Below, one piece after another: positions 1,443-40,528 of a stretch of DNA of 46,516 nt. Every line of letters starts with the position of its first letter. Within the stretch, counting starts at the first letter, position 1. Location: the NCBI GenBank assembly GCA_016867585.1, contig VGJF01000002.1, positions 1 through 46,516 on the forward strand, read 5' to 3'. The notes beneath the pieces are model-generated. The model saw only the letters and a list, made by a program, of their open reading frames with translations. It was not told the DNA's origin and did no database searches. This stretch comes from Candidatus Aminicenantes bacterium. GTDB taxonomy: Bacteria > Acidobacteriota > Aminicenantia > Aminicenantales > UBA4085. The position numbers and the translations under genes were made by a program.

Positions 1443-3020
1443 TCAGCCCTTGAGGATCTGGCTGACCTCGTCCTTGTCGACGTCGAGGATGTAGGGGATG
1501 CCGCTGATGTCGGAGGCTTCCTTGGTCAGGGAGGCGATGTCGTCCCGGGTGATGTAGCTCAGGGCGAACTTCCGGTTGCCGGCCATGAGCTGGCGCAATC
1601 CCTGGTCGAGGCGCTTGAAGTAGCTGTAAACGCCCATCGCCCCGGGCGGGAGGTTCTCGAACCGCTTGCCGTACTTCCGCTTGAGCTCGGGGGCGGTGAC
1701 GAAGATCTCCTCTCGGGAGTTGCCGAACCGCTCGACGTAGACCGGGATTTGGCCTTCGTCGATCCGCCGGCCGATCGTCTTGCCGACCATGGCCGCGGCC
1801 AGGGGGCTGCGGGCCATCCCGACGGCCTTGACGTAGGGCGCGCCCAGGGACAAGGCCTTGAAGATCTGGTCCTCGAAGGTGATTCCCCCGGCGAAGACGA
1901 TGTCGGGGAGGTATTCGCCCCGCTTGGCCAGGATATCCGCGTATTTGTAGGTCAGGCTCCAGATCTCGACGCTCGGGATGCCCCACTCGTTCATCATCCG
2001 CCAGGGGCTCATCCCCGTCCCGCCGCCGGCGCCGTCCACGGTCAGCATGTCGAGCTTGGCCTTGGAGGCGTACTTGACCGCCCGGGCGAGGTCGGCCGGC
2101 CGGTAGGCGCCCGTCTTCAGAAAGACGTGCTTCGCCCCGGCCTTGCGGAGCTCCGCGACGCGCTTCATGAAGCTCTCTTCCTCGACCATCCCCAACCGGG
2201 AATGGCGCTCGAACTCCTTGAAGCCGCCCTTCTCGAAGGCGGCGATGACGTTCGGGTCCTCGGGATCGGGAAGGACGATGTAGCCCCGCTTCCGGAGATC
2301 CTGGGCCTTCTTGAGGTTCTTGATCTTGACCTCGCCGCCGATGTCCTTGGCCCCCTGGCCCCACTTCAGCTCGACGGTGTCGACCTTGAGCTTCTGGATG
2401 GCGTACTCCTGGATGCCGAGGCGGGTGTCCTCGACGTTGGCCTGGACGACGACCGTCCCGTAGCCGTCCTGCCAGTCCTTGTAGAGCTTGACCCGCGTCT
2501 CGAGGTCCTTGGAGCGGACGATCCGGCCGTTCTTGATCTCGGAGTCGTCGTCCATCCCGCCGACGTTCTCGCCGACGGTCAGGATCGCGCCCGAGACGGC
2601 CGCCCCGATGGCCAGCCCTTCCCAGTTCTGCTTGGCGACATTGGTCGAACCCATGCCGCCCAGGACGAACGGGACCTTGAGCTTGATGTCCTTGTCCTTC
2701 CCCACGGCCGTCTCGATCGAGACTTTCTCGAACGTCGCCTTGTCGCTGTCGGCCTCGACGCCGTGGGCCCCGACGGCCGTCCCCATGATGCTGAAGTGAG
2801 AGAGGTCGTAGGGGTATTCCTTCTCCGAGCCGGCGGTGATGATCCCGAACGGCTGGGGATAGAGGACTTCGGCCCCGCGGTAGGCGGATTTGCCGATCTC
2901 GCACATCCCGATGCAGCCGTCGACGCAGGTCACGCACATCCCGCTGAAGGGGCTGATCGAGCCTTCGGTCCGGTTCTTGGTCAGGGTCGCCGCGCTTCGG
3001 TTGAGTTTCGTATAAGACAT
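1443..3020 (-). CDS. Glutamate synthase-related FMN-domain protein (GltB domain-2-like, stand-alone)
   Basis: 525 aa. TIM-barrel FMN domain pattern (GGMGS, VELKWGQGAKDIGGE, TVDGAGGGTGMSP, VFAGGI). N-terminal Cys motif CVTCVDGCIGMCEIG. No amidotransferase domain and no GXGXG domain. Confidence 0.85.
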   Translation of the reverse strand: MSYTKLNRSAATLTKNRTEGSISPFSGMCVTCVDGCIGMCEIGKSAYRGAEVLYPQPFGIITAGSEKEYPYDLSHFSIMGTAVGAHGVEADSDKATFEKVSIETAVGKDKDIKLKVPFVLGGMGSTNVAKQNWEGLAIGAAVSGAILTVGENVGGMDDDSEIKNGRIVRSKDLETRVKLYKDWQDGYGTVVVQANVEDTRLGIQEYAIQKLKVDTVELKWGQGAKDIGGEVKIKNLKKAQDLRKRGYIVLPDPEDPNVIAAFEKGGFKEFERHSRLGMVEEESFMKRVAELRKAGAKHVFLKTGAYRPADLARAVKYASKAKLDMLTVDGAGGGTGMSPWRMMNEWGIPSVEIWSLTYKYADILAKRGEYLPDIVFAGGITFEDQIFKALSLGAPYVKAVGMARSPLAAAMVGKTIGRRIDEGQIPVYVERFGNSREEIFVTAPELKRKYGKRFENLPPGAMGVYSYFKRLDQGLRQLMAGNRKFALSYITRDDIASLTKEASDISGIPYILDVDKDEVSQILKG

Positions 3021-3044
3021 CTTCGTTTCCTCCTTGTCGAAAAG

Positions 3045-3728
3045 TTATTTGGATTTGTCCTGGACGCAGGTGCCGCACCGGCCGGCGTCGTACATCCAGC
3101 AGTTCAGTTCGCCGTATTCTTCGAGGCAGGTCGGCTCGATCTGCAGGCAGGCGTTGCAGATGTCCGTCTCGGCGCTCGGGCCCTGGCAGCGGGCCGAACA
3201 GGCCGGGCAGATGTAGATGCAGGCCCCGCAGAGCCGGCAGTCCTCGGACCGGATGTCGAAGGGGGTCGAGATCTTCCGCTTGTGGCCCCGGTTCTGGAAG
3301 CCGATGGCCCGGGCGTCCATCTGCTCGTCGCACATCCGGACGCACAGGCCGCAGTAGACGCATTCCTCGTTGCGCGGCGGGTAGCGCTGTTCCGTCACGC
3401 CGAACTTCGAGGCCAGGTCCTGGATCTTCTTCGACATGGGCGCGGTCGAGAGCATGAGCTCGATCATCATCCGCCGCGCCCGGATGACCCGTTTCGTGTC
3501 CGTCTGGACGACCAGGCCTTCCTCGGCGGGATAGGTGCAGGAGGAGACGAGCCGCGTCTTGGGCTTGGCCCCGATCTCGACGACGCACAGGCGGCAGCCC
3601 CCCCAGGGGGTCAGCCCCTCGTTGTGGCACAGGGTCGGGATCTCCAGCCCGTAAAACTGGGCCGTCTCGAGGAGCGTCCAGCCCTCCTCGGCCTGGACTT
3701 CCAAGCCGTTCATGATGAGGCGGATCAT
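3045..3728 (-). CDS. 2Fe-2S plus 2x[4Fe-4S] iron-sulfur protein (NuoG/HydA N-terminal-like) with a Cys-rich tail
   Basis: Real gene is the C-terminal 227 aa of track ORF 3045..5441, starting at MIRLIMNGLEV. Motifs: CHNEGLTPWGGCRLC, CVYCGLCVRMC, CRLCGACIYICP. Its start overlaps the upstream stop (ATGA, 3725-3728). Confidence 0.8.
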   Translation of the reverse strand: MIRLIMNGLEVQAEEGWTLLETAQFYGLEIPTLCHNEGLTPWGGCRLCVVEIGAKPKTRLVSSCTYPAEEGLVVQTDTKRVIRARRMMIELMLSTAPMSKKIQDLASKFGVTEQRYPPRNEECVYCGLCVRMCDEQMDARAIGFQNRGHKRKISTPFDIRSEDCRLCGACIYICPACSARCQGPSAETDICNACLQIEPTCLEEYGELNCWMYDAGRCGTCVQDKSK

Positions 3729-6700
3729 GGATTCCCTCCTAAGGCGGCCTTGCCGTCCTCGGTCTCCAGGTCGCAGCGCAGGCAGCGCCGCGCTTCCCGG
3801 CAGGCCGACGCTTCGGAAAGCGTCCTTTCGACTTCGCGGAAATTCTTCCGCCGCTGGGCCGGCGACAGGGTGGGGATTTTCGGCCGCTCCGCCCGGGCCG
3901 CCTCCGCTTCGGAAACGGAAACGGAGGGAACGTACGTCGACGGCCGAGTCAGCCAGTAATCGCGTTGCATCGGCAGGCCGCGGATGTATTTCTCGATCAT
4001 CTCGGCCGCGACCTTGCCCGCGGCCATGGCTTCGACGACCATGTTCGGGCCGGTCACGGCGTCGCCCCCGGCGAAGACTCCGGCCCGGGTCGTCATGGCC
4101 GTCTCTTCGTCGATGTGGATGTTCTCCTCGACCCGACGGATTTCGTCGCCCTCGCCGATGTAGGACGTGTCGGGGCGCTCGCTGATGGCCAGGATGAGGG
4201 TGTCGAGAGGCATCGTGAAGTTCGAGCCCTCGACGGGCACCGGCCTCCGCCGTCCGCTCGAGTCCTTGTCGCCGAGCCTCATCCGGACGCACTCGATGGC
4301 CGTCGCCTTGCCGTAGGCGGTGATGACCCGGACCGGGGCGACGAGGAACTGGAGATCGATCCCTTCCTCGATGGCCGCGTCGACCTCCTCGGCCAGGGCC
4401 GGCATTTCCGCCTTCGTCCGGCGGTAGAGGATCGAGACCTTCTCGCAGCCCGGCTGCCGGTGGGCGGCTCGGGCGGCGTCGATCGCCGAGTTGCCGCCGC
4501 CGACGACGCAGACCCGCTTGCCGACGGGAACGGTCCGGCCGAGGTTGATTTCCCGGAGATACTCCAGGGAGTGGAGGACGCCCTCGGCCTCCTCGCCGGG
4601 GATGCCCATGGCCAGGGACTTCCCGGCCCCCGTGGCGCAGAAGACGGCCTTGTAACCGTCCCGGAACAGGCCGTCGATGGTGATGTCGCGGCCGAGGACC
4701 TGGCCCGTTCGGATCGTCACGCCCGAGGCCTTGATGAAATCGACCTCGCGGGCGACGATCTCTTTGGGAAGACGGTGGTCGGGAATGCCGACGGCCGTCA
4801 TCCCTCCGGAGACGGGCAGGGCCTCGTAGATCGTCGGCCGGTAACCCTTCCGGGCGAGGAAATATCCGGCCGTCAGGCCGGCCGGCCCGCCGCCGATGAT
4901 GGCGACCTTTTCCTTGTTCTGGCGGAGGGGTTCGGGGACATAGCGGACCCCGTTGGCTTCGGCCCAGTCGAGGACGAAGCGCTTGATGGCCCGGATCGAG
5001 ATCGGCTCGCCCGACTCGCCGGCCCGGCAGGCCAGCTCGCAGGGATGGTGGCAAACCCGGGCGCAGATCGAAGGCAGGGGATTGTCCTTGAGAATGACCC
5101 GGTAGGCCTCCTCGTACCGGCCTTGGGAAACCAGGGCGATGTAGGTCGAGGCCTCCTGGCCGATCGGGCAGACGTAGTGGCAGGGGGACGAGACGATCTC
5201 CTTGCAGACCAGGGCCGGGCACTTCTTGCGCCGGATGTGCTGGCGGTACTCGGCCTTGAAGTACTTGAGGGTCGAAAGGACGGGGTTGGCCGCGTTCTGG
5301 CCCAGGCCGCACATCGAGGCGTCCTTGACCGATTCGGCCAGCTCCTCGAGGAGGACGAGGTCGTCGTCCTTCCCCTGTCCCTTGGAGATCCGCTCGACGA
5401 TCTCCCAGAGCCGCTGGGTCCCCTCGCGGCAGGACAGGCACTTGCCGCAGGACTCGTCCCGGAGGAAATTCAGGAAGTACTTGGCCACGTCGACCATGCA
5501 GGTCGATTCGTCCATGACGATCATCCCCCCCGAGCCCATGATCGAGCCGGCCGCGGCCAGGCTCTCATAGTCGATCGGGAGGTCGATCTTCGAGGCCGGC
5601 AGGCAGCCGCCGGCCGGGCCCCCGGTCTGGACGGCCTTGAACCTCTTGTCGCCCGGGATCCCTCCGCCGATGTCGTAGATGATCTCCCGAAGGGTGATCC
5701 CCATCGGGACCTCGACGAGGCCGGTGTTGTTGATCTTGCCGACGAGCGAGAAGATCTTGGTTCCCTTGCTGCCGGCCGTGCCGATCGAGGCAAAGGCCGC
5801 CCCCCCCTTGGTGATGACGAGGGGGACGGTCCCCCAGGTTTCGACGTTGTTGATGACCGTCGGCTTTCCCAGAAGGCCCTTGATCGCGGGGTAAGGCGGC
5901 CGCTGGCGCGGTTCGCCGACCTTCCCTTCGATCGAGGCGATCATGGCCGTCTCTTCGCCGCAGACGAAGGCCCCGGCCCCTTTGGCGATCCGGAAGTCGA
6001 AGTCGAAGCCCGTCCCGAGGATATTCTCCCCGAGGAGGCCGGCGCCCCGGAGGGCCTCGATGGCCGCCGTGACGTTCTCCACGGCCAGAGGGTACTCGTC
6101 ACGGACGTAGATGATCCCCTCCCGGGCGCCGATGGCGAAGGCGCCGATCATCATCCCCTCGAGGACGCGATGGGGATTGCCCTCGAGGAGGCTGCGGTCC
6201 ATGTACGCCCCGGGGTCGCCTTCGTCGGCGTTGCAGATGATGTATTTTGGGGCGGCTTTTTGGGCGCGGGCGACTTCCCACTTCCTTCCCGTCGGGAAGC
6301 CGGCGCCGCCCCGCCCCCGAAGGCCCGAGGTCTTGACCTCGCCGATGACCTCCTCGGGGCTCATCTTGGTGAGGACCTTGAGAAGGGCGCCGTAGCCGCC
6401 GATCGAAAAATAATCGTCGATCCGGGTCGGATCGATGAGGGCGTTGTCGCCGAGAACGAACCGGTTCTGCTTCTTGTAGAACGGGATTTCGTGCTCCCGT
6501 CGGGCCGTCCCCCCCGTCGCCGGGTCCTTGTAGAGGAGGTCCTCGAGGACCTGTTTCTTCTTGACCGTCCGGCCGACGATGTCGTCGGCCCTCTTGGGGT
6601 CGACCTTCTGGTAGAAAAGGTCCTGGGGCTGGATGATGATGTTGGGTTCGGCCTCGCAGAAGCCGTGGCAGCCGGTCACCCGGACCCGGACGTTCTTCTC

Positions 6701-6883
6701 CAGCTTGGAGGCCTTGAGGGATTTCTCCAGGGCGGAGATGACCTTGAGGGATCCCCGGGCCCGGCCGCACGTGCCCGCCGAAACGGTCAGGACGGGGCGC
6801 TTGTCCTCGGTCCGCCGCTTCTTGAGGCCGGAGATGCGGTTCTTGAGATCCCGGGTTGTCTTGAGGACGGGAAGGGCTTTCAT
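3725..6883 (-). CDS. Fusion protein: thioredoxin-like [2Fe-2S] + NuoF-like NAD(H)/FMN module + GltD/NfnB-like FAD/NAD(P)H oxidoreductase
   Basis: 1052 aa. NuoF-type motifs: GLRGRGGAGFPTGRKW, ICNADEGDPGA, ESCGKCLSCREG. GltD-type motifs: NPLPSICARVCHHPCELACR, VAIIGGGPAGLTAG, VCVVGGGNSAIDAARAA, GVFAGGDAVTG. Confidence 0.85.
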   Translation of the reverse strand: MKALPVLKTTRDLKNRISGLKKRRTEDKRPVLTVSAGTCGRARGSLKVISALEKSLKASKLEKNVRVRVTGCHGFCEAEPNIIIQPQDLFYQKVDPKRADDIVGRTVKKKQVLEDLLYKDPATGGTARREHEIPFYKKQNRFVLGDNALIDPTRIDDYFSIGGYGALLKVLTKMSPEEVIGEVKTSGLRGRGGAGFPTGRKWEVARAQKAAPKYIICNADEGDPGAYMDRSLLEGNPHRVLEGMMIGAFAIGAREGIIYVRDEYPLAVENVTAAIEALRGAGLLGENILGTGFDFDFRIAKGAGAFVCGEETAMIASIEGKVGEPRQRPPYPAIKGLLGKPTVINNVETWGTVPLVITKGGAAFASIGTAGSKGTKIFSLVGKINNTGLVEVPMGITLREIIYDIGGGIPGDKRFKAVQTGGPAGGCLPASKIDLPIDYESLAAAGSIMGSGGMIVMDESTCMVDVAKYFLNFLRDESCGKCLSCREGTQRLWEIVERISKGQGKDDDLVLLEELAESVKDASMCGLGQNAANPVLSTLKYFKAEYRQHIRRKKCPALVCKEIVSSPCHYVCPIGQEASTYIALVSQGRYEEAYRVILKDNPLPSICARVCHHPCELACRAGESGEPISIRAIKRFVLDWAEANGVRYVPEPLRQNKEKVAIIGGGPAGLTAGYFLARKGYRPTIYEALPVSGGMTAVGIPDHRLPKEIVAREVDFIKASGVTIRTGQVLGRDITIDGLFRDGYKAVFCATGAGKSLAMGIPGEEAEGVLHSLEYLREINLGRTVPVGKRVCVVGGGNSAIDAARAAHRQPGCEKVSILYRRTKAEMPALAEEVDAAIEEGIDLQFLVAPVRVITAYGKATAIECVRMRLGDKDSSGRRRPVPVEGSNFTMPLDTLILAISERPDTSYIGEGDEIRRVEENIHIDEETAMTTRAGVFAGGDAVTGPNMVVEAMAAGKVAAEMIEKYIRGLPMQRDYWLTRPSTYVPSVSVSEAEAARAERPKIPTLSPAQRRKNFREVERTLSEASACREARRCLRCDLETEDGKAALGGNP

Positions 6884-7356
6884 GAAGGCCTCCCCGGCTT
6901 CCGGTACCTTTTCAGGATCCCGTCCACCTTCCGGGTCGTCGTGTGGGCGTGGTAATCGCGGTCGACGACGACGACCGGGCCGATGGCGCAGCAGCCGAGA
7001 CAGGCCACGGTCTCGAGGGTGAACTGGCCGTCGGGAGTCGTCTCCCCGGGCTGGACGGCCAGCTTGCGCTCGAATTCCTCCAGGATTTTCGGACCCCCGC
7101 GGATGTGGCAGGCCGTCCCCAGGCAGACGGTGACGATGTGGCGTCCCCGCGGCTTCAGACTGAAGGCGCGGTAGAACGTCGCCACGCCGATCACGTCGAT
7201 GAGGGGGACGCCCAAGGATCGGGCCACGGCGCGGAGGGCGTCGGGCGGAAGGTAGTTGTGCTCCGCCTGGATGTCCTGGAGGATCGCGATGAGCGCCTTT
7301 TTCTGGCTCTTGTGCTTGAGGATCGAGGCCTTCACGCGGTCGATTTGGACATCCAC
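6880..7356 (-). CDS. NuoE/HydC-like thioredoxin-fold [2Fe-2S] ferredoxin subunit
   Basis: 158 aa. Motifs: LIAILQDIQAEHNYLP, VCLGTACHIRG, VACLGCCAIGPVV. 4-nt overlap with the downstream NuoF-GltD gene. Confidence 0.85.
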   Translation of the reverse strand: MDVQIDRVKASILKHKSQKKALIAILQDIQAEHNYLPPDALRAVARSLGVPLIDVIGVATFYRAFSLKPRGRHIVTVCLGTACHIRGGPKILEEFERKLAVQPGETTPDGQFTLETVACLGCCAIGPVVVVDRDYHAHTTTRKVDGILKRYRKPGRPS

Positions 7357-7625: not shown

Positions 7626-8462
7626 ATGGAGGCTTCGGCGAACGGACGAAAGAGGGCCCGGCGAAGAGAAATTGTCCGCCGCGCCCGCCTCACGGGAAAC
7701 GTCGCCGAGGCCTGCCGCTTCCACGGGATCAGCCGGACAACCTTTTATAAATGGCTGCGCCGCTTCGAGAGCGAAGGCCCGGCCGGGCTGGACGACAAAT
7801 CGCGCCGCCCGCACGGCCATCCCCGCCGGACGCCGGCCGAGGTCGTGGCCAAGATCGTCTTTATCCGGCGGGTCTTCGGCCTGGGGCCGGCCGAGATCGG
7901 AAGGCGGCTCGAGTCCCTATCCGGATTTCGGATTTCCGGGCCCGGCGTCTGGAAAGTCCTCCGCCGCCTCGGCCTCCATCGCCGTTGCGGAGCGGGGCGC
8001 CGGCTCAGGGCCGAGGTCCCCCCGCCCGAGGAAAAGCGCGTCGTTCGCCTCGATGTCCGGCCGATCCAGAATCCCTTGGTCTCGAGGCGGCTGACCTACC
8101 TTTACATCGCCGCCGAAGAAGAGAGCGGCCTCCGCTTTATCCGGACGTTCGACCGGATCGAGCCGGCGACGGCCATCCGGTTCATCGAAGAGGCGATCCG
8201 CCGGCTTCCTTTTCGCGTTGGAGCGGTCAAAACCGACGCCGGCCCGGAATGGAAGGGCTATGTCCACGCCGGCCTCCTCGGCCGGGGGATCGATCATTTT
8301 GTCTCCAGGACGCGGAAACCGGACGAGAAGCTTCCCCTCGGCCATTCGGCCTGGGCCGACGGCCCTCCGGCCGGCCTCGAGGAGGGCCTTCTCGTGGAAC
8401 CGGAGGGTTTCCTGACCGAGGCCCTCCGGCGCTGGGAGCGCCTTTACAAGATCGGCAGATAG
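7626..8462 (+). mobile_element. IS481-family transposase-like ORF, shortened and catalytically degenerate; no IS ends seen
   Basis: N-terminal HTH pattern (GISRTTFYKWLRRFESEGPAGLDDKSRRPHGHPRRT). DDE-core remnants VRLDVRPI and AVKTDAGPEW are present. The usual PQTNGKVERF block carrying the third acidic residue is missing and the C-terminus is short (278 aa total). Confidence 0.6.
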
Positions 8463-9850
8463 CGGCGGACTTCATAGTCCGAGACCTGCTTGTCGTATTC
8501 GGCCCCGACGTTCCGGGCGTAGTCGGCGATCTCCTCGCGCTTGTTGGCGATGAACTTGCGGAAGATGTCCTCGCCCAGGGCGTTGCGGACGAGATCGCTC
8601 CCTTCCATGAGCCGGACGGCTTCCGCCAGATCCCGGGGGAGGGTTTGGATCTTGAGCTTCTTCTGCCGGGCGCCGCTCATGCCGTAGGTGTTCTCCTCGA
8701 CGGCCTCGGGGAGGGGATACCGCTCCCGGACGCCGGCCAGTCCGGCCGTCAGCATGACGGTGAAGGCGAGATACAGGTTGCAGCCGGGGTCGGGAGAGCG
8801 GAGCTCGAGACGGGTGGCGCCTTCCTTGTCGGGCTGGTACTGGGGGACGCGGATGTAGGCCGAGCGGTTCCTCTGGCCCCAGGCGATGTAGACCGGGGCC
8901 TCGTAGCCCTCGATGAGCCTCTTGTAGGAGTTGATCCACTGGCTGAAGACGGCCGAAATCTCCCGGGCGTGGTGGATGAGTCCGCCGATGTATGACCGGG
9001 CGGTTCCCGACAGGCGGTATTCGCCCGAACCGTCGAAGAAGAGATTCCTCCCCCCGCTCCAGAGGGACTGGTGGACGTGCATCCCGCTGCCGTTCTGGCC
9101 GTTGATCGGCTTGGGCATGAAGGTCGCGTAGAGGCCGTGCATCCGGGCGACGCGTTTGACCATGTATCGGAAGAGCATCCCGATGTCGGCCATCTCCAGG
9201 GCGCCGGCGTATTCGAGGTCGATCTCGTGCTGGCCGTGGGCGACCTCGTGGTGGTCGTATTCGGAGCGGATGCCCATCCGCTTGAGGAGGAGCTGGATCT
9301 CTTTCCGGATTTCGCCGTGGCGGCCGGCGAAGAAATACCCGCCCTCGTCCAGGGGCTCGGGCTCGCGGTCGTTGGGGAAGAGGAAGAATTCGAGCTCGGG
9401 CCCGACGTTGAAGGCCTCGATCCCGAACTCCTCCTCGGCTCGGCGGAGGGCCCGCTTCAAGGCGCCGCGGGAGTCGCCCCCGAACGGCCGTCCGTCCGGC
9501 GTCAGGATGTCTCCAAACATGACTCCCTCCCGCCAGGTCGTGGCCGGGTCGAAGCCCCGATAGGCCCACGGCAGGAGACGGAAGGTCTTCGGATCGGGCT
9601 TGATGACGAGGTCGCTCTCCTCGATCCGGACGAAGCCTTCAACCGATGAGCCGTCGAAGCCCTTCCCGTCTCGGAAGGCTTTTTCGAGCTCGGGTCCGGG
9701 GAAGGAGAAGTCCATGGGCCGGCCCAGGATGTCGGGGAAAACGACCCGGATGAACTCGATCCTGTTTTCCGGCTCGAGGACGGCCTCGAGGACTTCTTCT
9801 TCTCCGGCGTAGCCGTGCGTTTTCAGGCTCGAGGGACAAGATGACGTCAT
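8444..9850 (-). CDS. glnA: Glutamine synthetase, type I-alpha
   Basis: GS signatures: FDGSSVEGF, GPELEFFLF, KPINGQNGSGMHVHQSLW, NRSAYIRVP. The NTYGMS region has no NLYDLP-type adenylylation loop. ATG at 9850 is preferred over the track TTG at 9856 because AGGAGG lies 6 nt upstream. Confidence 0.9.
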   Translation of the reverse strand: MTSSCPSSLKTHGYAGEEEVLEAVLEPENRIEFIRVVFPDILGRPMDFSFPGPELEKAFRDGKGFDGSSVEGFVRIEESDLVIKPDPKTFRLLPWAYRGFDPATTWREGVMFGDILTPDGRPFGGDSRGALKRALRRAEEEFGIEAFNVGPELEFFLFPNDREPEPLDEGGYFFAGRHGEIRKEIQLLLKRMGIRSEYDHHEVAHGQHEIDLEYAGALEMADIGMLFRYMVKRVARMHGLYATFMPKPINGQNGSGMHVHQSLWSGGRNLFFDGSGEYRLSGTARSYIGGLIHHAREISAVFSQWINSYKRLIEGYEAPVYIAWGQRNRSAYIRVPQYQPDKEGATRLELRSPDPGCNLYLAFTVMLTAGLAGVRERYPLPEAVEENTYGMSGARQKKLKIQTLPRDLAEAVRLMEGSDLVRNALGEDIFRKFIANKREEIADYARNVGAEYDKQVSDYEVRRYLPIL

Positions 9851-9891
9851 CTTCAACCTCCTGAACTATTAAAAAAAGACATTTGTCCTTT

Positions 9892-9920: not shown

Positions 9921-10079
9921 GATATCATATATAATTAAGCACAAATGTTTTGCATCGATGAATAATAAGGAGTCGGGGCGGCGAGCCGAGCGGATGTGTC
10001 CCACCCCGGAGCCGTTGACGTGTTTCGCGGCCGCCCCAAAAAGGCGCTTGTCGGCCGGACGAGCGGGGCGGAAAACGTA

Positions 10080-10085
10080 TATAAT
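10080..10085 (+). promoter_or_regulatory. Candidate -10 box (perfect TATAAT) for the Lrp/AsnC gene; no convincing -35
   Basis: TATAAT at 10080-10085, 21 nt upstream of the GTG at 10107, followed by the GGGGAGGA Shine-Dalgarno. Confidence 0.3.
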
Positions 10086-10106
10086 AGGCGGCGGGGAGGA
10101 TCATCC

Positions 10107-10550
10107 GTGATCGAAGAGCTCGACAAAAAGATCATCAGGGTCATGAACGTCAACGCCCGAAAAAGCTTCCGGGAAATCGCCAAGGAGGTCGGCACCTCGG
10201 TCACGGCCGTGATCGGAGCCGTCAAGAGAATGGAGTCCTCGGGGGCCATCCGGGGCTATTTTCCGGCCGTCGACCCGGCCAGATTCGGGTTCGACCTGTG
10301 CGCCCTTGTCGCTCTCAGGATCTCGCAGGGCAAGATTCTCGAAACCCAACGCCGGATCGCCGAGGATGTCCGGGTATCGGCCGTTTACGACGTCACCGGA
10401 GAATGGGACTCGATCGTCGTCGCGTATTTCCAAGGCCGCGACGACCTCAACCGGTTCTTGAAGAAGGTCACCGCGATGCCCTACGTCGACCGGACGGTGA
10501 CCCATCTCGTCCTCAATACGGTCAAGGACGAGCGCCGGATTCCCGTTTAA
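10107..10550 (+). CDS. Lrp/AsnC-family transcriptional regulator
   Basis: GTG start (in frame with track ORF 9996..10550) preceded by GGAGGA. HTH: LDKKIIRVMNVNARKSFREIAKEVGTSVTAVIGAVKRMESSGAIRGY. Followed by a RAM/AsnC_trans_reg-like C-terminal domain. Confidence 0.85.
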   Translation: MIEELDKKIIRVMNVNARKSFREIAKEVGTSVTAVIGAVKRMESSGAIRGYFPAVDPARFGFDLCALVALRISQGKILETQRRIAEDVRVSAVYDVTGEWDSIVVAYFQGRDDLNRFLKKVTAMPYVDRTVTHLVLNTVKDERRIPV

Positions 10551-10553
10551 TAA

Positions 10554-10599
10554 GGGGGCGGCTCCTTTTTCGGCCGAAAATGGAACCGTCCCCTTTTTT
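10554..10599 (+). terminator. Rho-independent terminator after the lrp-like gene
   Basis: Long imperfect hairpin gggggcggctcctttttcgg / ccgaaaatggaaccgtcccc followed by TTTTTT. Confidence 0.65.
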
Positions 10600-10602
10600 C
10601 GT

Positions 10603-10630
10603 TTGACAGGGGGGGGGACTGTGCCATAAT
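10603..10630 (+). promoter_or_regulatory. Sigma70-type promoter for the AdoMet decarboxylase gene (TTGACA-16-CATAAT) with a G9 tract in the spacer
   Basis: TTGACA at 10603-10608, then G9 (10609-10617) + actgtgc, then CATAAT at 10625-10630. ATG at 10655. Confidence 0.5.
10609..10617. repeat. Homopolymeric G9 tract inside a promoter spacer
   Basis: Counted directly: nine consecutive G between the -35 and -10 boxes. Confidence 0.9.
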
Positions 10631-10654
10631 ACAGTTCCGGACCGGGAGAAAGGC

Positions 10655-11098
10655 ATGAGCAAAAAAAAGCACGAACCTGTCGGCCATCATTACATCGCCG
10701 AGGCCTCGGGCTGCAACCCGAAAATCATCGCCAGCGTCGAGAAAGTCCAAGACATCCTCGTCAAAGCGGCCGAAATCGCCGGAGCCAAGGTCTGGGCGAT
10801 TTCCTTCCACAGGTTCCCTCCGAGCGGCGTGAGCGGCGTCGTCGTCATTTCGGAATCCCACATCTCGACCCATACCTGGCCCGAGTTGAGGTACGCCGCC
10901 CTCGACATTTACACTTGCGGCAGCCACGTCGATCCGGAAAAAGCGGTCCTCTACGCTCTGGCCTCTTTCGGGGCGACAACCTCCCACATCACCGAAATCA
11001 CCCGAGGCATCGAGGAGGGAGACCTCAAGTTCTACCACAGTTCGGTCACTTGGGAGGAGAATTTCCGGCGCCGGTTCGGGAACGAGCCGGGGAAGTAG
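10655..11098 (+). CDS. speD: S-adenosylmethionine decarboxylase proenzyme (small bacterial/archaeal class 1 type)
   Basis: 147 aa. Self-processing and active-site block VVVISESHISTHTWPE. DIYTCG motif. Confidence 0.9.
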   Translation: MSKKKHEPVGHHYIAEASGCNPKIIASVEKVQDILVKAAEIAGAKVWAISFHRFPPSGVSGVVVISESHISTHTWPELRYAALDIYTCGSHVDPEKAVLYALASFGATTSHITEITRGIEEGDLKFYHSSVTWEENFRRRFGNEPGK

Positions 11099-13911: not shown

Positions 13912-15297
13912 TCAGAATTCCGAAACGTCGATATCCAGCCGCTTGATCATCTCGTTGAGCGTCGTCGGCTTGACCCCGAGCTTCGCCGCGGCCGCTTTCT
14001 GGACGCCCTTGGACCGGTGGAGGATCGTCTCGATGAGCTTCCGCTGGAAAGCCAAGGTCTGCTCCCGGAGGTTGAAGGATTCGCCGGAAGGAAGGGAGAG
14101 CGTCTCGGCCGCCCCTTCCGGGCTCAGGTAGAACGCCGGGAGGTCTTCCCGGCCGATGAGGTTCGTCTTGGCGAAGACGACCGCCCGTTCGACGAGGTTC
14201 TCGAGCTCGCGGACGTTGCCCGGCCAAGGATGCGCCTCCAAGATGTCCAGGACATCCGGCGTCACCCCCTCGATCTCCTTGCCGTTTTCCTTGGCGTAGA
14301 GGTCGAGGAAGTGCTTGACGAGGAGGGGGATGTCGTCCCTCCGCTCCCGGAGCGGGGGGAGCCCGATCTTGATGACGTTGAGCCGGTAGTAAAGGTCCTT
14401 GCGGAAGGCCTTGGCGGCGATGAGCTCCTCGAGGTCGGTGTTCGTCGCGGCGATGATCCGGACGTCGACCCGGATCGTCTTCGTCCCGCCGAGGCGCATG
14501 AATTCCTTGTCCTGCATGACCCGGAGAAGCTTGGCCTGGGTTTCGAGGCCGATCGTCGAGATCTCGTCGAAGAAGATCGTCCCCTTGTCGGCCGCCTCGA
14601 AGAGGCCCTCCTTCTCGCTCACGGCCCCGGTGAAGGCGCCTTTGACGTGGCCGAAGAGATGGCTCTCGAGGAGGTCGGGAGGCAGGGCGCCGCTGTTGAC
14701 GACGATGAAGGGGAGATGGGCCCGGTTCGAGCTCTGATGGATGGCCCGGGCGACGAGCTCCTTGCCCGTGCCGCTTTCGCCCTCGACGAGGATCGTCGAG
14801 CGGGTCGGGGCCGCGGCCCGGATGAGCTCGAAGACCTTCTCCATGGCTTGGCTGCGGCCGATGAGGTTGCTGAAGCCGTACTTCCTCTGGAGGGCGTCCC
14901 GGAGGCGGAGATTCTCGTCCTGGAGGCTCTTGTGCTCGAGGGCCCGGCGGATCGTCAGGAGAAGCTCGTCGTGCTTGAAAGGCTTCTGGACATAGTCGTA
15001 GGCCCCGATTTTCATGGCCTCGATGGCCGATTCGACCGAGGCATAGGCCGTGATGATGATGACCAGGGCCCGGGGGTTCTGCCGTTTCAGGACCTTGAGG
15101 ACCTCGATCCCGTCCAAGCCGGGCATGAGGAGGTCGAGCAGGACGAGGTCGGGCCGGCGGAGGCCGTAGCTCTGGAGCCCTTCCTCGCCGGAGGAGGCGG
15201 CGGCGACGTCGTAGCCCTCCGAGGCGAGGAGCTGGCCGAGGACGTCGCGGATGACGGGTTCGTCGTCGATGATCAGGATCGCGTCCGATGAGCTCAT
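13912..15297 (-). CDS. Sigma54-dependent response regulator (NtrC family: REC + AAA+ + Fis-type HTH)
   Basis: REC domain (LIIDDEP...DLVLLDLLMPGLDG). AAA+ domain (GESGTGKELVARAIH, GAFTGA, ESHLFGH). C-terminal HTH (AAAKLGVKPTTLNEMIKRL). Confidence 0.9.
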   Translation of the reverse strand: MSSSDAILIIDDEPVIRDVLGQLLASEGYDVAAASSGEEGLQSYGLRRPDLVLLDLLMPGLDGIEVLKVLKRQNPRALVIIITAYASVESAIEAMKIGAYDYVQKPFKHDELLLTIRRALEHKSLQDENLRLRDALQRKYGFSNLIGRSQAMEKVFELIRAAAPTRSTILVEGESGTGKELVARAIHQSSNRAHLPFIVVNSGALPPDLLESHLFGHVKGAFTGAVSEKEGLFEAADKGTIFFDEISTIGLETQAKLLRVMQDKEFMRLGGTKTIRVDVRIIAATNTDLEELIAAKAFRKDLYYRLNVIKIGLPPLRERRDDIPLLVKHFLDLYAKENGKEIEGVTPDVLDILEAHPWPGNVRELENLVERAVVFAKTNLIGREDLPAFYLSPEGAAETLSLPSGESFNLREQTLAFQRKLIETILHRSKGVQKAAAAKLGVKPTTLNEMIKRLDIDVSEF

Positions 15298-18152: not shown

Positions 18153-18210
18153 CGTTCAATCCAATAAATTGAATCCAGTGTATAAAAAAAATCTGGCTCG
18201 TGTAAAGGCG

Positions 18211-18543: not shown

Positions 18544-18593
18544 AATGCCGGGCTTTCCTTGAAGCTTGGAACCAACCGGGAGGAGACGCCGAG

Positions 18594-19796
18594 GTGCCTT
18601 CTTTTCTCTGCCGTTTGACCGGCGAAGACGGACGGGTCCTCGTCCGGAAACTCGCCGCGGCCTCGGCCGCGGACGTCCGACGGCACTTCGAGTCCGAAGG
18701 CCTGTGCGTCCTGGGGGTCAAGCGGGACTGGAGCCGCCTTCGCCTGTCCCTCTTCGAGGGCCGGATCAACCCCCGCGACTTCATCATGTTCAACCAGGAG
18801 CTCATGGCCCTTCTCCGGGCCGGCTATCCCGCCCTCCGGAGCCTCGAGGTCATCGCCGCGCGGGCCAAGAGCCCCGCCCTGCGCGACGTCCTGGGGAAGG
18901 TCGAAGAGGACATCCGGCACGGCAAGTCGATTTCGGAAGCCTTCGCGCCTTTCGAAAAGCGGTTTTCCAAGATCTATACGGCCGCCCTGACCGCCGGCGA
19001 GCAGAGCGGCAACCTTCCCGAGACGATCGGGCAGTACGTCCAGTACGCCAAGAGAATCGACCAAACCCGCCGCCGCGTCCGTTCGGCCATGACGTACCCG
19101 ACGCTGCTCTTTTTCTTCGCCGTGGGGCTCCTCCTGGTCATCCTGAACTTCGTCCTGCCGAATTTCTCCGACTTCTACGCCGACTTCGAAAGCCAGCTTC
19201 CCCTCGTCACGGTCCTGCTGATCGACTTTTCGATGTTCGTCCGCCGGTTGTGGTGGCTCTGGCTCCTCCTGATCGTCTTTCTCGCGGCCGCCGTCTCCCG
19301 GCTCAAACGCCGCGAAGACACCCTCGTCTGGCTTGAACGCCAGAAACTGCGCCTGCCCCTCGGCCGTCTTCTTTGGCGCGAGTCCGGGGTCGGGCTCTTC
19401 AGCCGAACGCTGAGCCTTCTCCTCGGAGCCGGGGTCTCGCTCGTGCCCGCGGTCGGGCTGGCCGCCCAGGCCATCCCCAACAAGTACCTCGCCGCGCGGG
19501 CCTCGGCCATCCCGGCCGGGATCAAGAACGGCGAGACCCTCTCGGAGGCCATGGCCAAGACCGAGGTCTTTCCCTCCCTGGCCCTGGACATGGTCCGGAT
19601 CGGGGAAACGTCGGCCAACCTGGCCGGGATGCTTCGCGAAGCGGCTGAGGTCTACGAAGAGCGGGTTCAGTCCAAGATCGACACCCTCGTTTCGCTCGTC
19701 GAACCGGTCATCATCATCTTCGTCGGTTTTCTCGTAGCCCTGATGCTCCTGGCCGTCTATCTTCCCATTTTCAACATCATCAAGGTGGCTCGCTGA
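18594..19796 (+). CDS. GspF/PilC-family inner-membrane platform protein
   Basis: 400 aa, GTG start after GGAGGAG. Two T2SSF-type repeats. Typical N-terminus and C-terminal LAVYLPIFNI. Confidence 0.9.
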   Translation: MPSFLCRLTGEDGRVLVRKLAAASAADVRRHFESEGLCVLGVKRDWSRLRLSLFEGRINPRDFIMFNQELMALLRAGYPALRSLEVIAARAKSPALRDVLGKVEEDIRHGKSISEAFAPFEKRFSKIYTAALTAGEQSGNLPETIGQYVQYAKRIDQTRRRVRSAMTYPTLLFFFAVGLLLVILNFVLPNFSDFYADFESQLPLVTVLLIDFSMFVRRLWWLWLLLIVFLAAAVSRLKRREDTLVWLERQKLRLPLGRLLWRESGVGLFSRTLSLLLGAGVSLVPAVGLAAQAIPNKYLAARASAIPAGIKNGETLSEAMAKTEVFPSLALDMVRIGETSANLAGMLREAAEVYEERVQSKIDTLVSLVEPVIIIFVGFLVALMLLAVYLPIFNIIKVAR

Positions 19797-19797
19797 C

Positions 19798-21408: not shown

Positions 21409-22334
21409 CGATGGCCGGAATCCGGGAGCGCTGGAACCGCTTTTTCACGGAGCCGATCGCTCCGCCGACGGCTTTTCAAATCAGCCGGGGTTTCCTTTGC
21501 GGCGTCCGTCACTCCCGGAAGGAGCGGCGGATCGCGGCCCATGTCATCCGTCCCCTCCCGCCGGGCGCCCTCAACCCCGGGTTCGACCGCCCGAACGTCG
21601 TCGACGCCCCGGCGCTCGAGGCCGCCGTCCGGGACGCCGTGCGACGCCTCGGCGCCGCCGAGATGATGGTTTCCCTCCTCATCCCGGAGACCGCGGTCAA
21701 GACGGTCCTCCTGGCCTTCGACGCCCTGCCGTCCGCGGACGAAGAGCGCGAGTCCGTCGTCCGCTGGAAATTGGCCAAGACGCTGCCTTTGAAATTCTCC
21801 GACCTCCGGCTCTCGTTCGACGTCTCGAAAACGAACGGCGGGAAGAGGGCTTTCTGCGTCTTGGCCCTCGAGAGCGTCGTCCGGGAATACGAAGAGGCCT
21901 TTGCCAAGACGGGTCTCCGCGTCCGGGCGGTCGGACTTCCGACGCCTCACCTCCTCGGGCTCCTCCCGGAGAGCGGCCCGACCGAGGTCCTTATCGCCAA
22001 CGTCGAGGAAGACCATTTGTCGCTTTTCGCCGCCGGGGACGGGGGGCCGGTCCTCTTCCGGGTCAAGGGATTCACCCCGGCGAGCGCGGCCGGCGGCGAA
22101 GGCTGGCCCCTCGTCGCGGCCGAGGTCGTCAACACGATCCATTTCCTCGAGGACCGCGAAAACTTCCGGGTCAAGGCCATTTGGGTCCGGGACGCCCGGG
22201 GGGCGCCCTCGGCCGTGGAGGCCTTGGCGGCGAGGGCCGGATGCCCCGTCCGTCCGGTCGGCTTCGCTTCGCCGGCCGTGGCCGGCCCCCGGGAGCAGGC
22301 CCTTCTCGCGCCTCTCATCGGACAGGTTTCATGA
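21405..22334 (+). CDS. PilM/GspL-like cytoplasmic assembly protein (divergent)
   Basis: Real gene is the C-terminal 309 aa of track ORF 21189..22334 (MTMAGIRERW...). ATGA overlap with the gspE stop. Called from position, size and lack of TM segments; sequence similarity is weak. Confidence 0.55.
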   Translation: MTMAGIRERWNRFFTEPIAPPTAFQISRGFLCGVRHSRKERRIAAHVIRPLPPGALNPGFDRPNVVDAPALEAAVRDAVRRLGAAEMMVSLLIPETAVKTVLLAFDALPSADEERESVVRWKLAKTLPLKFSDLRLSFDVSKTNGGKRAFCVLALESVVREYEEAFAKTGLRVRAVGLPTPHLLGLLPESGPTEVLIANVEEDHLSLFAAGDGGPVLFRVKGFTPASAAGGEGWPLVAAEVVNTIHFLEDRENFRVKAIWVRDARGAPSAVEALAARAGCPVRPVGFASPAVAGPREQALLAPLIGQVS

Positions 22335-26918: not shown

Positions 26919-26998
26919 AAAATCAATAAGTTAAGGAGAGAACGACGGATTTAGGATTATGGGCGGATCGACAATGAAATCCAAAATCTTCCGATTTC

Positions 26999-40479: not shown

Positions 40480-40509
40480 TTGACCGGCGCCCGGGCCCCG
40501 TGTTATTTT
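40480..40509 (+). promoter_or_regulatory. Candidate promoter for addA (TTGACC-18-TATTTT)
   Basis: TTGACC at 40480-40485, 18-nt spacer, TATTTT at 40504-40509. GGGGGA Shine-Dalgarno before the GTG at 40529. The -35 box is the mirror arm of an inverted repeat shared with the divergent promoter. Confidence 0.35.
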
Positions 40510-40528
40510 TGGCCGCCGGGGGACAACC

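Follow-up and report, generated by a model that had tools for sequence, protein, structure and literature searches.

A four-gene operon of Candidatus Aminicenantes combining a bifurcating-type NAD(P)H/ferredoxin module with a putative glutamate-synthase-like FMN subunit

What reaction might be served by an operon that joins genes for a NuoE-like protein, a NuoF-GltD fusion and a short Fe-S protein to a stand-alone FMN domain of glutamate synthase (GOGAT)? The question is raised by a window of 46,516 nucleotides (the whole stretch of DNA analysed), for which a preliminary description had proposed a bifurcating-type NAD(P)H/ferredoxin module wired to a minimal GltS FMN subunit; we found no account of this four-gene set in the literature searched. 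The architectural part of that proposal stands, while true bifurcation, ferredoxin use by the fused variant and the nature of the substrate are conjectural. The relevant features are:

8444-9856, minus strand: glnA, GSI-alpha-like, with Gln-synt_C and Gln-synt_N matches
7626-8462, plus strand: IS481-type transposase remnant, between glnA and the operon
7551-7523, minus strand: promoter-like TTGACA-17 nt-TATAAG, weak, seen by eye only
6880-7356, minus strand: NuoE-like gene, 158 aa, GTG start
3725-6883, minus strand: NuoF-GltD fusion gene, 1052 aa
5219-6883, minus strand: BfuB/NuoF/HydB-like part of the fusion, aa 1-555 (Complex1_51K, weak SLBB, NADH_4Fe-4S, weak N-terminal PF01257)
3725-5218, minus strand: GltD/NfnL-type part of the fusion, aa 556-1052 (Fer4_20 and Pyr_redox_2)
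3045-3728, minus strand: Fe-S protein gene, 227 aa
1443-3020, minus strand: FMN protein gene, 525 aa
1379-1422, minus strand: intrinsic terminator hairpin, 20-bp stem followed by a T-run

All four minus-strand reading frames of the preliminary description are present, and the Pfam content of the four proteins agrees with what it had reported. Reading the junctions base by base, we recovered both ATGA overlaps (6883-6880 and 3728-3725) and the 24-nt gap, which separates the TAA stop of the Fe-S gene (3047-3045) from the ATG of the FMN gene at 3020. A ribosome-binding site of the GGAGG type precedes each of the four starts (GGAGGG for the NuoE-like gene), and the strong terminator said to close the operon is indeed there. 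A near-copy of this hairpin lies at 10557-10596. The weakest part of the earlier observation is the promoter: TTGACA-17-TATAAG is visible by eye, but it goes unreported in a consensus scan, since the -10 hexamer has G at its sixth position.

By homology, the first three proteins are assigned to BfuC, BfuB and a short WorA-type BfuA of the HydABC/NfnABC/WorABCSL ("Bfu") family. The 6880-7356 product matches PF01257 in Pfam (1.3e-51) and NuoE/HoxE-type families in NCBIfam, and is predicted to be the BfuC/NuoE/HydC-like thioredoxin-like [2Fe-2S] subunit; its cluster ligands C78, C83, C119 and C123 are 100% conserved among 65 orthologues. The 3045-3728 product, with Fer2_4 and Fer4_7 in Pfam, has as its top PDB match WorA of WorABCSL (9mqx_A, 126 bits, residues 3-191), followed by the N-termini of HydA and StnC. 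We therefore predict a short BfuA of the WorA type, with one [2Fe-2S] cluster, two [4Fe-4S] clusters and a conserved Cys-rich C-terminal tail; the His-ligated cluster is missing, and 19 of 20 cysteines are kept in at least 84% of 77 orthologues. In the fusion protein (Complex1_51K, NADH_4Fe-4S, Fer4_20 and Pyr_redox_2), the NuoF part retains a thioredoxin-like domain at its N-terminus (B5), the FMN/NADH site, the [4Fe-4S] cluster B1 and CPxxxC. It scores 616-673 bits, at 58-60% identity, against the solved bifurcating BfuB chains 7t2r_B, 8a6t_B, 9n5u_B and 8oh5_B, versus approximately 350-400 bits against non-bifurcating NuoF/FdsB. The GltD part aligns over all of E. coli GltD, including 8 Cys, the two GxGxxG motifs and YRR, and is predicted to hold two [4Fe-4S] clusters, FAD and an NAD(P)H site whose ligand is probably NADPH; in the PDB it is closest to the NfnL-like domains of 9bov_A (413 bits), 9n5u_A and 8oh5_C. 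This part stands in place of the ferredoxin-like, ferredoxin-binding B3/B4 domain found at the C-terminus of canonical BfuB. Related loci come in both forms: 45 carry the GltD fusion and 28 have a C-terminal pair of CxxCxxCxxxC motifs instead.

These data bear on whether the complex would bifurcate electrons at all. NuoEF could be an NADH-input module as in HoxEFU, FdsABG and complex I, in which case the enzyme would be a plain NADH/NADPH reductase that neither uses ferredoxin nor couples energy; this alternative is one of mechanism and would allow the substrate to be the same. It gains from the loss in the fused BfuB of the B3/B4 domain, treated as part of the low-potential path by Schut et al. 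(2022) and Xiao et al. (2025), and from the exergonic nature of imine reduction with NADH, for which coupling would be unnecessary. However, the BfuB part is far nearer to proven bifurcating enzymes (673 versus approximately 350-400 bits) and keeps B5 and CPxxxC, B3/B4 is intact in 28 orthologous loci, and the GltD/NfnL clusters themselves form the low-potential ferredoxin path in NfnSL (PMC8097209, PMC12018979). A non-bifurcating enzyme seems possible to us, with the odds somewhat against it.

The preliminary description had made its reading depend on the gene order extending beyond this genome. Of the 81 loci holding the FMN gene, 65 preserve the order NuoE-NuoF(+/-GltD)-FeS-FMN protein, most of those without all four parts being truncated contigs. 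These loci span approximately 18 phylum-level lineages or labels, with the archaea including Thermoplasmata and Methanobacteriota MAGs; anaerobic bacteria of many phyla carry the set, as do some archaea, with at least 591 confirmed matching stretches across species-representative genomes, and every relative is a MAG. Conservation is highest in the FMN subunit, whose median identity is 69% even outside Aminicenantes (59, 57, 54 and 47% for the others). Genes 1-3 could in principle encode a rearranged Stn/Nfn-Bfu transhydrogenase acting on NADH, NADPH and ferredoxin, the FMN protein being a separate enzyme that is merely co-transcribed. The inventory of NuoE, NuoF, NfnL-like FAD/NADPH domain and BfuA N-terminus does equal that of StnABC (8OH5) and NfnABC (9N5U, 9BOV), whose NfnL-like domains are the top PDB matches of the GltD part, yet the NfnL domain sits at the BfuB C-terminus here and is inserted in BfuA there, and the window set has an additional FMN subunit. 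Moreover, the FMN gene is invariably present whereas the NfnL/GltD domain is dispensable (absent in 28 of 73 loci), so that BfuABC together with the FMN protein makes up the conserved unit, and the Cys-rich tail of the short BfuA resembles the WorA adaptor that recruits a catalytic subunit. We regard two enzymes in one operon as improbable.

As for the FMN protein itself, PF01645 is its sole family match (69.9 bits against a cut-off of 20.4); an NCBIfam search returned no match, and no PDB relative was detectable by sequence. Its AF2 model (pLDDT 82.8) matches FMN TIM barrels, including GOGAT 1ofd/7mfm. The motifs of the GOGAT FMN domain align in order (GENVG with GEGGE, Q..RLG with Q..RFG, QGAK, DGxGGGTGxSP and GG..KAL.LGA), and we place the protein, from sequence, in a discrete and divergent branch of the glutamate-synthase FMN family. 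The stand-alone barrel had been described as carrying an additional N-terminal CxxCxxxCxxxC; this motif (C29-x2-C32-x3-C36-x3-C40) is invariant in 83 orthologues, stands in for the [3Fe-4S] cysteines of GOGAT (Cx5Cx4C) and is predicted to be the only Fe-S site of the subunit. A grouping with characterised non-GOGAT enzymes, which would have spoken against the preliminary description, was considered and rejected, as the protein clusters with none.

The GltD-type NADPH/FAD/2x[4Fe-4S] module and the PF01645 barrel recall bacterial NADPH-glutamate synthase, GltBD, with QGAK, DGxGGTGxSP and GG..KA..LGA common to both. In contrast to GltBD, however, the window complex has the NuoE/NuoF/BfuA module in addition and lacks the Ntn glutaminase, central and GXGXG domains. 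The absence of amidotransferase and GXGXG domains from the window had been noted before, and we can extend it: GATase_2 and GXGXG were not found in 32 ORFs covering the main predicted genes, the four domains of E. coli GltB gave no tblastn match (E<=1e-3) in the window or any fetched locus, and neither GATase_2 nor GXGXG is encoded in approximately 80 related loci or, in over 80 genomes, within 10 kb. Glutaminase and GXGXG subunits might be encoded elsewhere and join the FMN subunit, with glutamine as nitrogen donor, given that GOGAT domains occur as separate proteins in Archaea (PMC8097209) and that glnA adjoins the operon in Aminicenantes. Besides the negative searches, the ammonia-tunnel-lining central domain is missing, and the FMN protein is a sequence island apart from canonical and archaeal GltB, with only 1112 representative clusters at E<=1e-3; a split GOGAT is very improbable.

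The genomic context points to nitrogen. The glnA gene, previously placed about 1 kb upstream, lies approximately 1.1 kb upstream, and the absence of the GSI-beta insertion from it is consistent with type I-alpha. It is a conserved upstream neighbour in Aminicenantes, approximately 260-700 bp upstream of nuoE in loci L007, L014 and L015, and occurs in 8 loci overall. Glutamate dehydrogenase (GDH) is found in 16 loci, of which 6 have it directly downstream in the same orientation; NrpR adjoins the FMN gene in 4, and NtrC-type sigma-54 regulators and histidine kinases occur in 24 and 18, respectively. Recurrence of GDH, glnA, NrpR and NtrC-type neighbours strengthens the suggested link to nitrogen metabolism.

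Would the substrate be glutamate? Within the same complex, the FMN subunit could reduce or oxidise a different 2-oxo, 2-hydroxy or imino acid, or some unrelated small molecule; it could also be only an electron-transfer or ROS-related flavoprotein. Its top Foldseek matches are lactate monooxygenase, flavocytochrome b2 and glycolate oxidase, these alpha-hydroxy-acid oxidases scoring equal to GOGAT; identity to GOGAT is only about 17%, and the invariant 'ERHS' motif (His273/Arg272) is absent from GOGAT. Short GltS-like proteins (M. jannaschii MJ1351 type; C. difficile CD0828) are likewise PF01645 FMN proteins, approximately 500 aa long and bearing a metal-Cys module at the N-terminus, and CD0828, which has a rubredoxin domain and a GOGAT-type Cx5Cx4C site, is encoded in a peroxide-stress operon and protects against H2O2 (PMC11980386); a Clostridiales subfamily of the FMN protein lies near rubrerythrin. 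The window family, unlike CD0828, has no Cx5Cx4C site and is tied to BfuABC. Set against other chemistry are the GOGAT-type motifs (QGAK, GEN/GEGG, DGxGGTGxSP), the exclusive match to PF01645, the GltD fusion in 45 loci and the GDH, glnA and NrpR neighbours, which point to 2-oxoglutarate, glutamate and nitrogen. We consider such other chemistry unlikely.

We favour, with a probability of about 0.5, a soluble Fe-S flavoprotein complex on the Bfu plan that carries out a glutaminase-independent, GOGAT-like synthase half-reaction. Operon structure, subunit identities, GltD integrity, motifs, synteny, conservation, the nitrogen and redox context and the lack of glutaminase and GXGXG argue for it. 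Against it count the remote similarity to GOGAT (hhalign probability about 60%, Foldseek ties), short PF01645 proteins with possibly unrelated roles, more distant FMN-protein subfamilies that have no link to NuoEF, and the missing canonical ferredoxin site of the fused variant. A further argument against it is that known Bfu enzymes have third substrates at approximately -400 mV, and the 2-iminoglutarate/glutamate couple is far more positive. The most likely function would be NADH- and NADPH/ferredoxin-linked amination of 2-oxoglutarate, or its reverse. Synteny is the basis on which we suggest that the four proteins assemble into one complex, where the FMN subunit would occupy the slot of the H-cluster, NiFe, W-pterin or NfnL modules. 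Electrons from NADH would pass from the BfuB FMN over the BfuA clusters and the N-terminal cluster to the FMN subunit, and NADPH would be the second donor through the GltD FAD, a part that ferredoxin would play in unfused orthologues; the fused variant, with GltD replacing B3/B4, may use ferredoxin as well. The FMN subunit would then convert 2-oxoglutarate, free NH3 and two electrons to L-glutamate, or the reverse, and the enzyme would connect the pyridine-nucleotide/ferredoxin pools with the glutamate/2-oxoglutarate pair under nitrogen and redox regulation. The energy of this high-potential reduction may drive the reduction of ferredoxin or NADP+, as in true bifurcation, the alternative being plain confurcation of two donors.

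Among known systems, Bfu Type 2 (WorABCSL of Acetomicrobium mobile, PDB 9MQX; HydABC; NiFe-HydABCSL) shares BfuC with its [2Fe-2S] cluster, BfuB with a Trx-like domain at the N-terminus, FMN, B1 and CPxxxC (58-60% identity to solved chains), a short BfuA that lacks the His-ligated cluster and H-cluster domain and best matches WorA, and a separate downstream gene for the catalytic subunit. It differs in that this subunit is here a PF01645 FMN barrel rather than a W-pterin, NiFe or H-cluster protein, that BfuB in the window has a GltD/NfnL domain for B3/B4, and that the presumed substrate couple is of high potential. HydB-GltA(GltD) fusions are also known from archaeal hybrid [FeFe]/[NiFe] hydrogenases, where the glutamate-synthase small-subunit-like domain fused to HydB/NuoF is a proposed low-potential acceptor site; the partners there are hydrogenase catalytic subunits, in contrast to the FMN GltS-like protein here (Greening et al., 2024, PMC11216029). 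The unfused Aminicenantes loci, finally, contain HydS-like regulators.

The operon comprises four minus-strand open reading frames, which we could confirm at the following positions, and it is preceded by a transposase remnant:

6880-7356, minus strand: NuoE-like protein, 158 aa, GTG start
3725-6883, minus strand: NuoF-GltD fusion, 1052 aa
3045-3728, minus strand: Fe-S protein, 227 aa
1443-3020, minus strand: FMN protein, 525 aa
7626-8462, plus strand: IS481-type transposase remnant (HTH_28/29/32 and LZ_Tnp_IS481)

Base-by-base reading agreed with the junctions of the preliminary description, namely two ATGA overlaps (6883-6880 and 3728-3725) and a 24-nt gap (TAA at 3047-3045, then 24 nt, then ATG at 3020), and a GGAGG-type ribosome-binding site lies ahead of all four starts. 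The terminator noted behind the operon is also there, as a 20-bp hairpin followed by a T-run (1379-1422). The proposed promoter, TTGACA-17-TATAAG at 7551-7523, is visible by eye but went unreported in a consensus scan because the last base of its -10 hexamer is G, and we regard it as a weak call. An Rfam search of the window gave no match, and thus no riboswitch in the operon leader of approximately 170 nt.

The first two genes resemble the core of the Bfu enzymes, the family of HydABC, NfnABC and WorABCSL with subunits BfuA (Fe-S), BfuB (NuoF-like) and BfuC (NuoE-like). The NuoE-like protein is a thioredoxin-like [2Fe-2S] protein with the PF01257/IPR002023 domain of BfuC (1.3e-51) and four invariant cysteines. 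In the fusion, we found the Nuo51 FMN domain (IPR011538; PF01512 at 2.2e-45) and the NuoF 4Fe-4S domain (IPR019575; PF10589 at 6.4e-32) of BfuB, while the SLBB domain (IPR019554; PF10531) scored 26.0 bits against a cut-off of 27 in a region that aligns gap-free to 7t2r_B; the N-terminus gave a weak thioredoxin-like match. In the PDB, residues 1-555 come closest, at 58-60% identity, to B subunits of enzymes with experimentally demonstrated bifurcation, led by NiFe-HydABCSL 7t2r_B (673 bits) and including HydB from Thermoanaerobacter kivui as well as Acetobacterium woodii (8a6t_B/7q4v_B), NfnB of Nfn-Bfu (9n5u_B) and StnB (8oh5_B), whereas non-bifurcating NuoF and FdsB reach approximately 350-400 bits.

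The window BfuB is nevertheless an exception in one defining Bfu feature: the C-terminal 2x[4Fe-4S] ferredoxin-type domain of about 60 residues (IPR017896) is missing. Clusters B3/B4, which make up the low-potential path to ferredoxin, are housed in this domain (PMC12018979). The alignment ends just past the CP(A)xxC site, and Fer4_20/GltD sequence takes over directly after CPALVC. Residues 556-1052 make up a complete GltD/NfnL-type module, with Fer4_20 (PF14691) and Pyr_redox_2 (PF07992), that aligns over the full length of E. coli GltD, including eight cysteines in two [4Fe-4S] groups, the YRR motif and both dinucleotide motifs (GxGxxG for FAD, GxGxxA for NAD(P)H). The first cysteine group has a different spacing, Cx4Cx7Cx3CP. 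The best PDB matches of this part are the NfnL-like domains in A subunits of Nfn-Bfu and Stn (9bov_A at 413 bits, 9n5u_A and 8oh5_C).

The 227-aa protein combines 2Fe-2S and 4Fe-4S ferredoxin-type domains as in BfuA (Fer2_4 and Fer4_7; one [2Fe-2S], 2x[4Fe-4S]); the His-ligated cluster known from NuoG/HydA is missing. Across 77 orthologues the cysteines of this protein are conserved (19 of 20 in at least 84%), among them seven or eight in the C-terminal tail. The closest PDB chain is WorA (9mqx_A, 126 bits), which serves the tungsten aldehyde oxidoreductase WorABCSL as its short BfuA and whose C-terminus recruits the catalytic module (PMC12318220). From domain content and PDB matches together, the first three genes encode BfuC, BfuB and a BfuA of Type-2 style, as Schut et al. 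2022 (PMC9304861) use these terms. A hydrogenase was considered and rejected, as the operon encodes no H-cluster domain.

For the fourth protein, PF01645 was the sole family match (69.9 bits against a cut-off of 20.4, in two stretches). No NCBIfam model was significant, and phmmer and family-profile searches of the PDB returned no solved relative, only designed TIM barrels and a chance match. When 1.84 billion cluster representatives were searched exhaustively with HMMER, only 1112 matched at E<=1e-3 and 188 at E<=1e-30, many of the best-scoring being fragments. With so few matches and neither a solved relative nor an NCBIfam model, the family is a discrete island, separate from the broad cloud of canonical GltB. 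AlphaFold, run on 15 family members, gave a confident model (pLDDT 82.8, pTM 0.86), with low values only at the N-terminus around the Cys motif and in a few loops. Foldseek matched this model to FMN (beta/alpha)8 barrels; E-values were similar for alpha-hydroxy-acid oxidases and for GOGAT (1ofd, 7mfm, 1llw), and the highest identity (17-18%) and highest query TM-score belonged to GOGAT. Profile-to-sequence alignment (hhalign) to the FMN domain of E. coli GltB was remote, with a probability of approximately 60%, and placed the GOGAT motifs in order.

Motifs of the FMN protein and their counterparts in E. coli GltB
FMN protein VGENVGG; GltB SGEGGE
FMN protein VQANVEDTRLG; GltB KQVASGRFG
FMN protein KWGQGAKDIGGE; GltB KVAQGAKPGEGGQ
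FMN protein DGAGGGTGMSP; GltB GYDGGTGASP
FMN protein AGG..FKALSLGA; GltB DGG..IKAAILGA

In GOGAT structures, the lysine of QGAK and the arginine that follows bind 2-oxoglutarate; K225 and R245 of the FMN protein are invariant among its closer family members. The extra N-terminal Cys motif was likewise confirmed, as C29-x2-C32-x3-C36-x3-C40, with each cysteine 100% conserved in 83 sequences and no further conserved cysteine in the same set. The Cx5Cx4C ligands of the GOGAT [3Fe-4S] cluster were not found in the FMN protein, where the aligned region reads AAAMVGKTIG.

The preliminary description had found no Ntn-amidotransferase or GXGXG domain in the window. Indeed, Pfam detected neither in 32 ORFs that span the window's main predicted genes, and tblastn with the four E. 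coli GltB domains gave no match at E<=1e-3, either in the window or in the related loci that we fetched from other genomes, while E. coli GltD gave 54 matches in the same sequences. The glutaminase query (GltB residues 1-430) found nothing in the window or the loci, and neither Pfam nor tblastn matched the GXGXG beta-helix or the central domain. A split archaeal-type GOGAT was therefore rejected, since its glutaminase and GXGXG parts had no match in the window or fetched loci. What the operon enzyme has in common with GOGAT is, in the FMN protein, the FMN (beta/alpha)8 synthase domain of the alpha subunit (a remote match) and, in the GltD part, the two [4Fe-4S] Cys groups, dinucleotide motifs and YRR of the beta subunit/NfnL family. 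Strictly speaking it is no GOGAT, because four of the five alpha-subunit features are absent.

The arrangement is by no means peculiar to this genome. A scan of one genome per species (GTDB) yielded at least 591 confirmed matching stretches, and all relatives are metagenome-assembled genomes. In the best 80 of these loci the FMN protein is 66-86% identical, and their lineages, going by record titles, comprise Aminicenantes, Zixibacteria, Ignavibacteria, Bacteroidetes, Planctomycetota/Phycisphaerae, Acidobacteriota, Latescibacterota, Eisenbacteria, Krumholzibacteriia, Coatesbacteria, Riflebacteria, Neomarinimicrobiota, Vulcanimicrobiota, Dehalococcoidia, Actinomycetota, Bacillota, Syntrophaceae/Smithella/Syntrophorhabdus and Thermoplasmata/Methanobacteriota archaea. 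By tblastn with the window proteins, the order NuoE - (small ORF) - NuoF - FeS - FMN protein is kept on one strand in 65 of 81 loci from many phyla, the remainder being mostly cut by contig ends; gene order is thus conserved beyond the genome of the window. Two forms occur, both of them inside Aminicenantes: a fused form with NuoF-GltD (45 loci) and an unfused form whose canonical BfuB has two CxxCxxCxxxC motifs at its end (28 loci), the latter retaining the ferredoxin-type C-terminus that the window variant lacks. The FMN protein is the most conserved component, at a median identity of 69% outside Aminicenantes, against 59% for NuoF, 57% for FeS, 54% for NuoE and 47% for GltD. More distant subfamilies of the FMN protein (45-50% identity; Asgard archaea, Clostridiales, Thermoleophilia) are not next to NuoEF genes, and the NuoEF association defines one clade of the family.

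Neighbouring ORFs were picked by cross-locus support (greedy selection) and then clustered. Recurring near the operon in different phyla, we found an NtrC-type sigma-54 response regulator in 24 loci, a histidine kinase in 18, and glutamate dehydrogenase in 16, on the same strand and directly downstream in six of them. A small Cys-rich protein lacking a Pfam match was also present in 16 loci, and glnA in 8, mostly Aminicenantes and one archaeal locus. In four loci (L048, L052, L080, L081) the neighbour is NrpR, of the 2-oxoglutarate-sensing nitrogen repressor family (e.g., PF01995 at 3.6e-74); its gene adjoins the FMN gene in L052 (6098-7117), L080 and L081, and in L048 is on the opposite strand, approximately 3.5 kb upstream. 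The strict sigma-54 -24/-12 consensus occurs upstream of the operon in 5 of 58 loci, and five of the 11 plus-strand matches in 1.35 Mb fall in these upstream regions, approximately 4% of the sequence; none was found upstream in the window. The unfused Aminicenantes loci (L001:2105-5786; L005, L010, L079) carry DRTGG/HATPase_c/PHP and Fer4 plus Fe_hyd_lg_C (HydS-like) genes upstream, a set typical of bifurcating [FeFe]-hydrogenase operons, with no catalytic hydrogenase in the operon.

The sequences show which cofactors the four operon proteins have sites for, namely FMN/NADH (BfuB), FAD/NAD(P)H (GltD part), FMN (last subunit) and roughly nine or ten Fe-S clusters. We envisage that these proteins form one complex. 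In it, BfuA would link the BfuBC core with the last subunit, both with its N-terminal [4Fe-4S] cluster and with its FMN; instead of this route, or alongside it, the GltD clusters may contact this N-terminal cluster, as GltD does with the [3Fe-4S] cluster of GltB. The reaction would be the synthase half-reaction of GOGAT with free ammonia, 2-oxoglutarate + NH3 + 2e- -> glutamate, or the reverse. The FMN subunit may also act on another substrate, and other short PF01645 proteins may have unrelated roles, C. difficile CD0828 being one example (PMC11980386). The synthase half-reaction is consistent with what we know of the family (PF01645), with the pattern of motifs, with GltD being frequently fused and with GDH, glnA, NrpR and NtrC as neighbours. 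Amination with free ammonia would, moreover, explain why a glutaminase is never found nearby.

Known Bfu enzymes have third substrates of far lower potential than the 2-iminoglutarate/glutamate couple. NADH could be the bifurcating donor, with exergonic amination driving the reduction of ferredoxin in the unfused form or of NADP+ in the fused form. Another option is that NADH and a second donor are simply confurcated, which is what Schut et al. proposed for Rub-Bfu and Nuo-Bfu (PMC9304861). The boldest reading, to which we give a chance of roughly one in five, is that of a new functional class of Bfu enzyme, in which the hydride of NADH would be split at the BfuB flavin, the high-potential branch being 2-oxoglutarate amination with free ammonia at the minimal GltS-type FMN subunit, and the low-potential branch leading to ferredoxin (unfused) or, via NfnL/GltD, to NADP+ (fused). 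If so, many uncultured anaerobes would couple nitrogen assimilation to energy conservation, or to the formation of NADPH or reduced ferredoxin; in the reverse direction, ferredoxin would pull glutamate oxidation during amino-acid fermentation.

Judged by sequence, the enzyme would stand alongside the Type-2 Bfu enzymes with a new catalytic module. Nfn-Bfu and Stn have the same domains in a different arrangement, and HydB-GltA fusions comparable to the window NuoF-GltD fusion are known from archaeal hybrid hydrogenases (PMC11216029). In the Bfu survey, 17 BfuB clades have no function assigned, and its main text and one supplement mention no glutamate synthase or glutamate-synthase-type partner (PMC9304861); full-text literature searching found no description of the four-gene system. 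If the complex is as it appears, a nitrogen/amino-acid reaction would join the third substrates of Bfu enzymes (H2, formate, NADPH, aldehydes, CO, pyruvate and others), an NfnL/GltD NADPH module and BfuB's ferredoxin-binding domain would be exchangeable, and a highly conserved protein that is auto-annotated "glutamate synthase" in hundreds of uncultured anaerobes would gain a function. Since the glutaminase is missing, metabolic reconstructions may wrongly score carriers as GS-GOGAT. With four genes and soluble proteins, the operon offers a compact system for testing.

Several minor observations concern the related loci. The Cys-rich ORF, of about 116 aa with a duplicated C-x2-C...C...CEE[FY] pattern (L027:4658-5179; also e.g. 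L032, L041, L066), lies between the NtrC-type regulator and nuoE in several phyla and has no counterpart in the window; in some of these loci a sigma-54 -24/-12 consensus is found upstream. One locus (L022:2444-11575) carries two Bfu sets in tandem before the FMN gene, NuoE - NuoF-GltD and then NuoE - NuoF - FeS - FeS, and two others (L023, L074) have a second, more divergent FMN-protein paralogue (58% and 48% identity) within a few kb of the operon copy. In L088/L089, loci of the Clostridiales subfamily (P0301), the FMN-protein relative is adjacent to, and divergently oriented from, genes for a molybdopterin oxidoreductase and a Fer4_22/NAD_binding_1/DHODB_Fe-S_bind protein, with no NuoEF and, in L088, a rubrerythrin gene also nearby.

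Lastly, we inspected the window around the operon. Its G+C content is 62-67%, the nearest relatives of its proteins are named Candidatus Aminicenantes, and the contig sequence is present in lake-water metagenomes, all of them DNA runs. The glnA gene (8444-9856), previously called type I-alpha, lacks the GSI-beta insertion of approximately 30 residues and the NLYDLPPEE context, consistent with that type. The IS481-type remnant, in which no catalytic domain was matched, separates glnA from the operon, and its end runs 19 nt over the glnA stop; in loci of close relatives (L007, L014, L015) glnA is located upstream of nuoE at approximately 260-700 bp. Within Aminicenantes, the gene order AdoMet decarboxylase - Lrp/AsnC regulator - glnA - operon (window 9996-11098, plus strand; 8444-9856, minus strand) is kept, the Lrp homologues in the relatives' loci being 54-66% identical to that of the window. 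An NtrC-type regulator and kinase at 13915-18155 were rejected as linked to the operon, as they share only 42-47% identity with their operon-linked counterparts in other loci, a level of generic family similarity. The hairpin at 1379-1422 behind the operon has a near-identical, long and GC-rich counterpart at 10557-10596 behind the Lrp/AsnC gene (AAGGGGACGGTTC.ATTTTC arms); exact copies among the fetched loci are confined to contigs of the same organism (L002-L004), and the pair looks like a genome-specific terminator or REP-like element. Elsewhere, the plus strand of the window encodes a T2SS/type IV pilus cluster with GspF, GspE and a cohesin-domain secretin (18546-26087), a tungsten-type aldehyde:ferredoxin oxidoreductase (26978-28849) and an AddAB-like helicase-nuclease pair (40484-46515).
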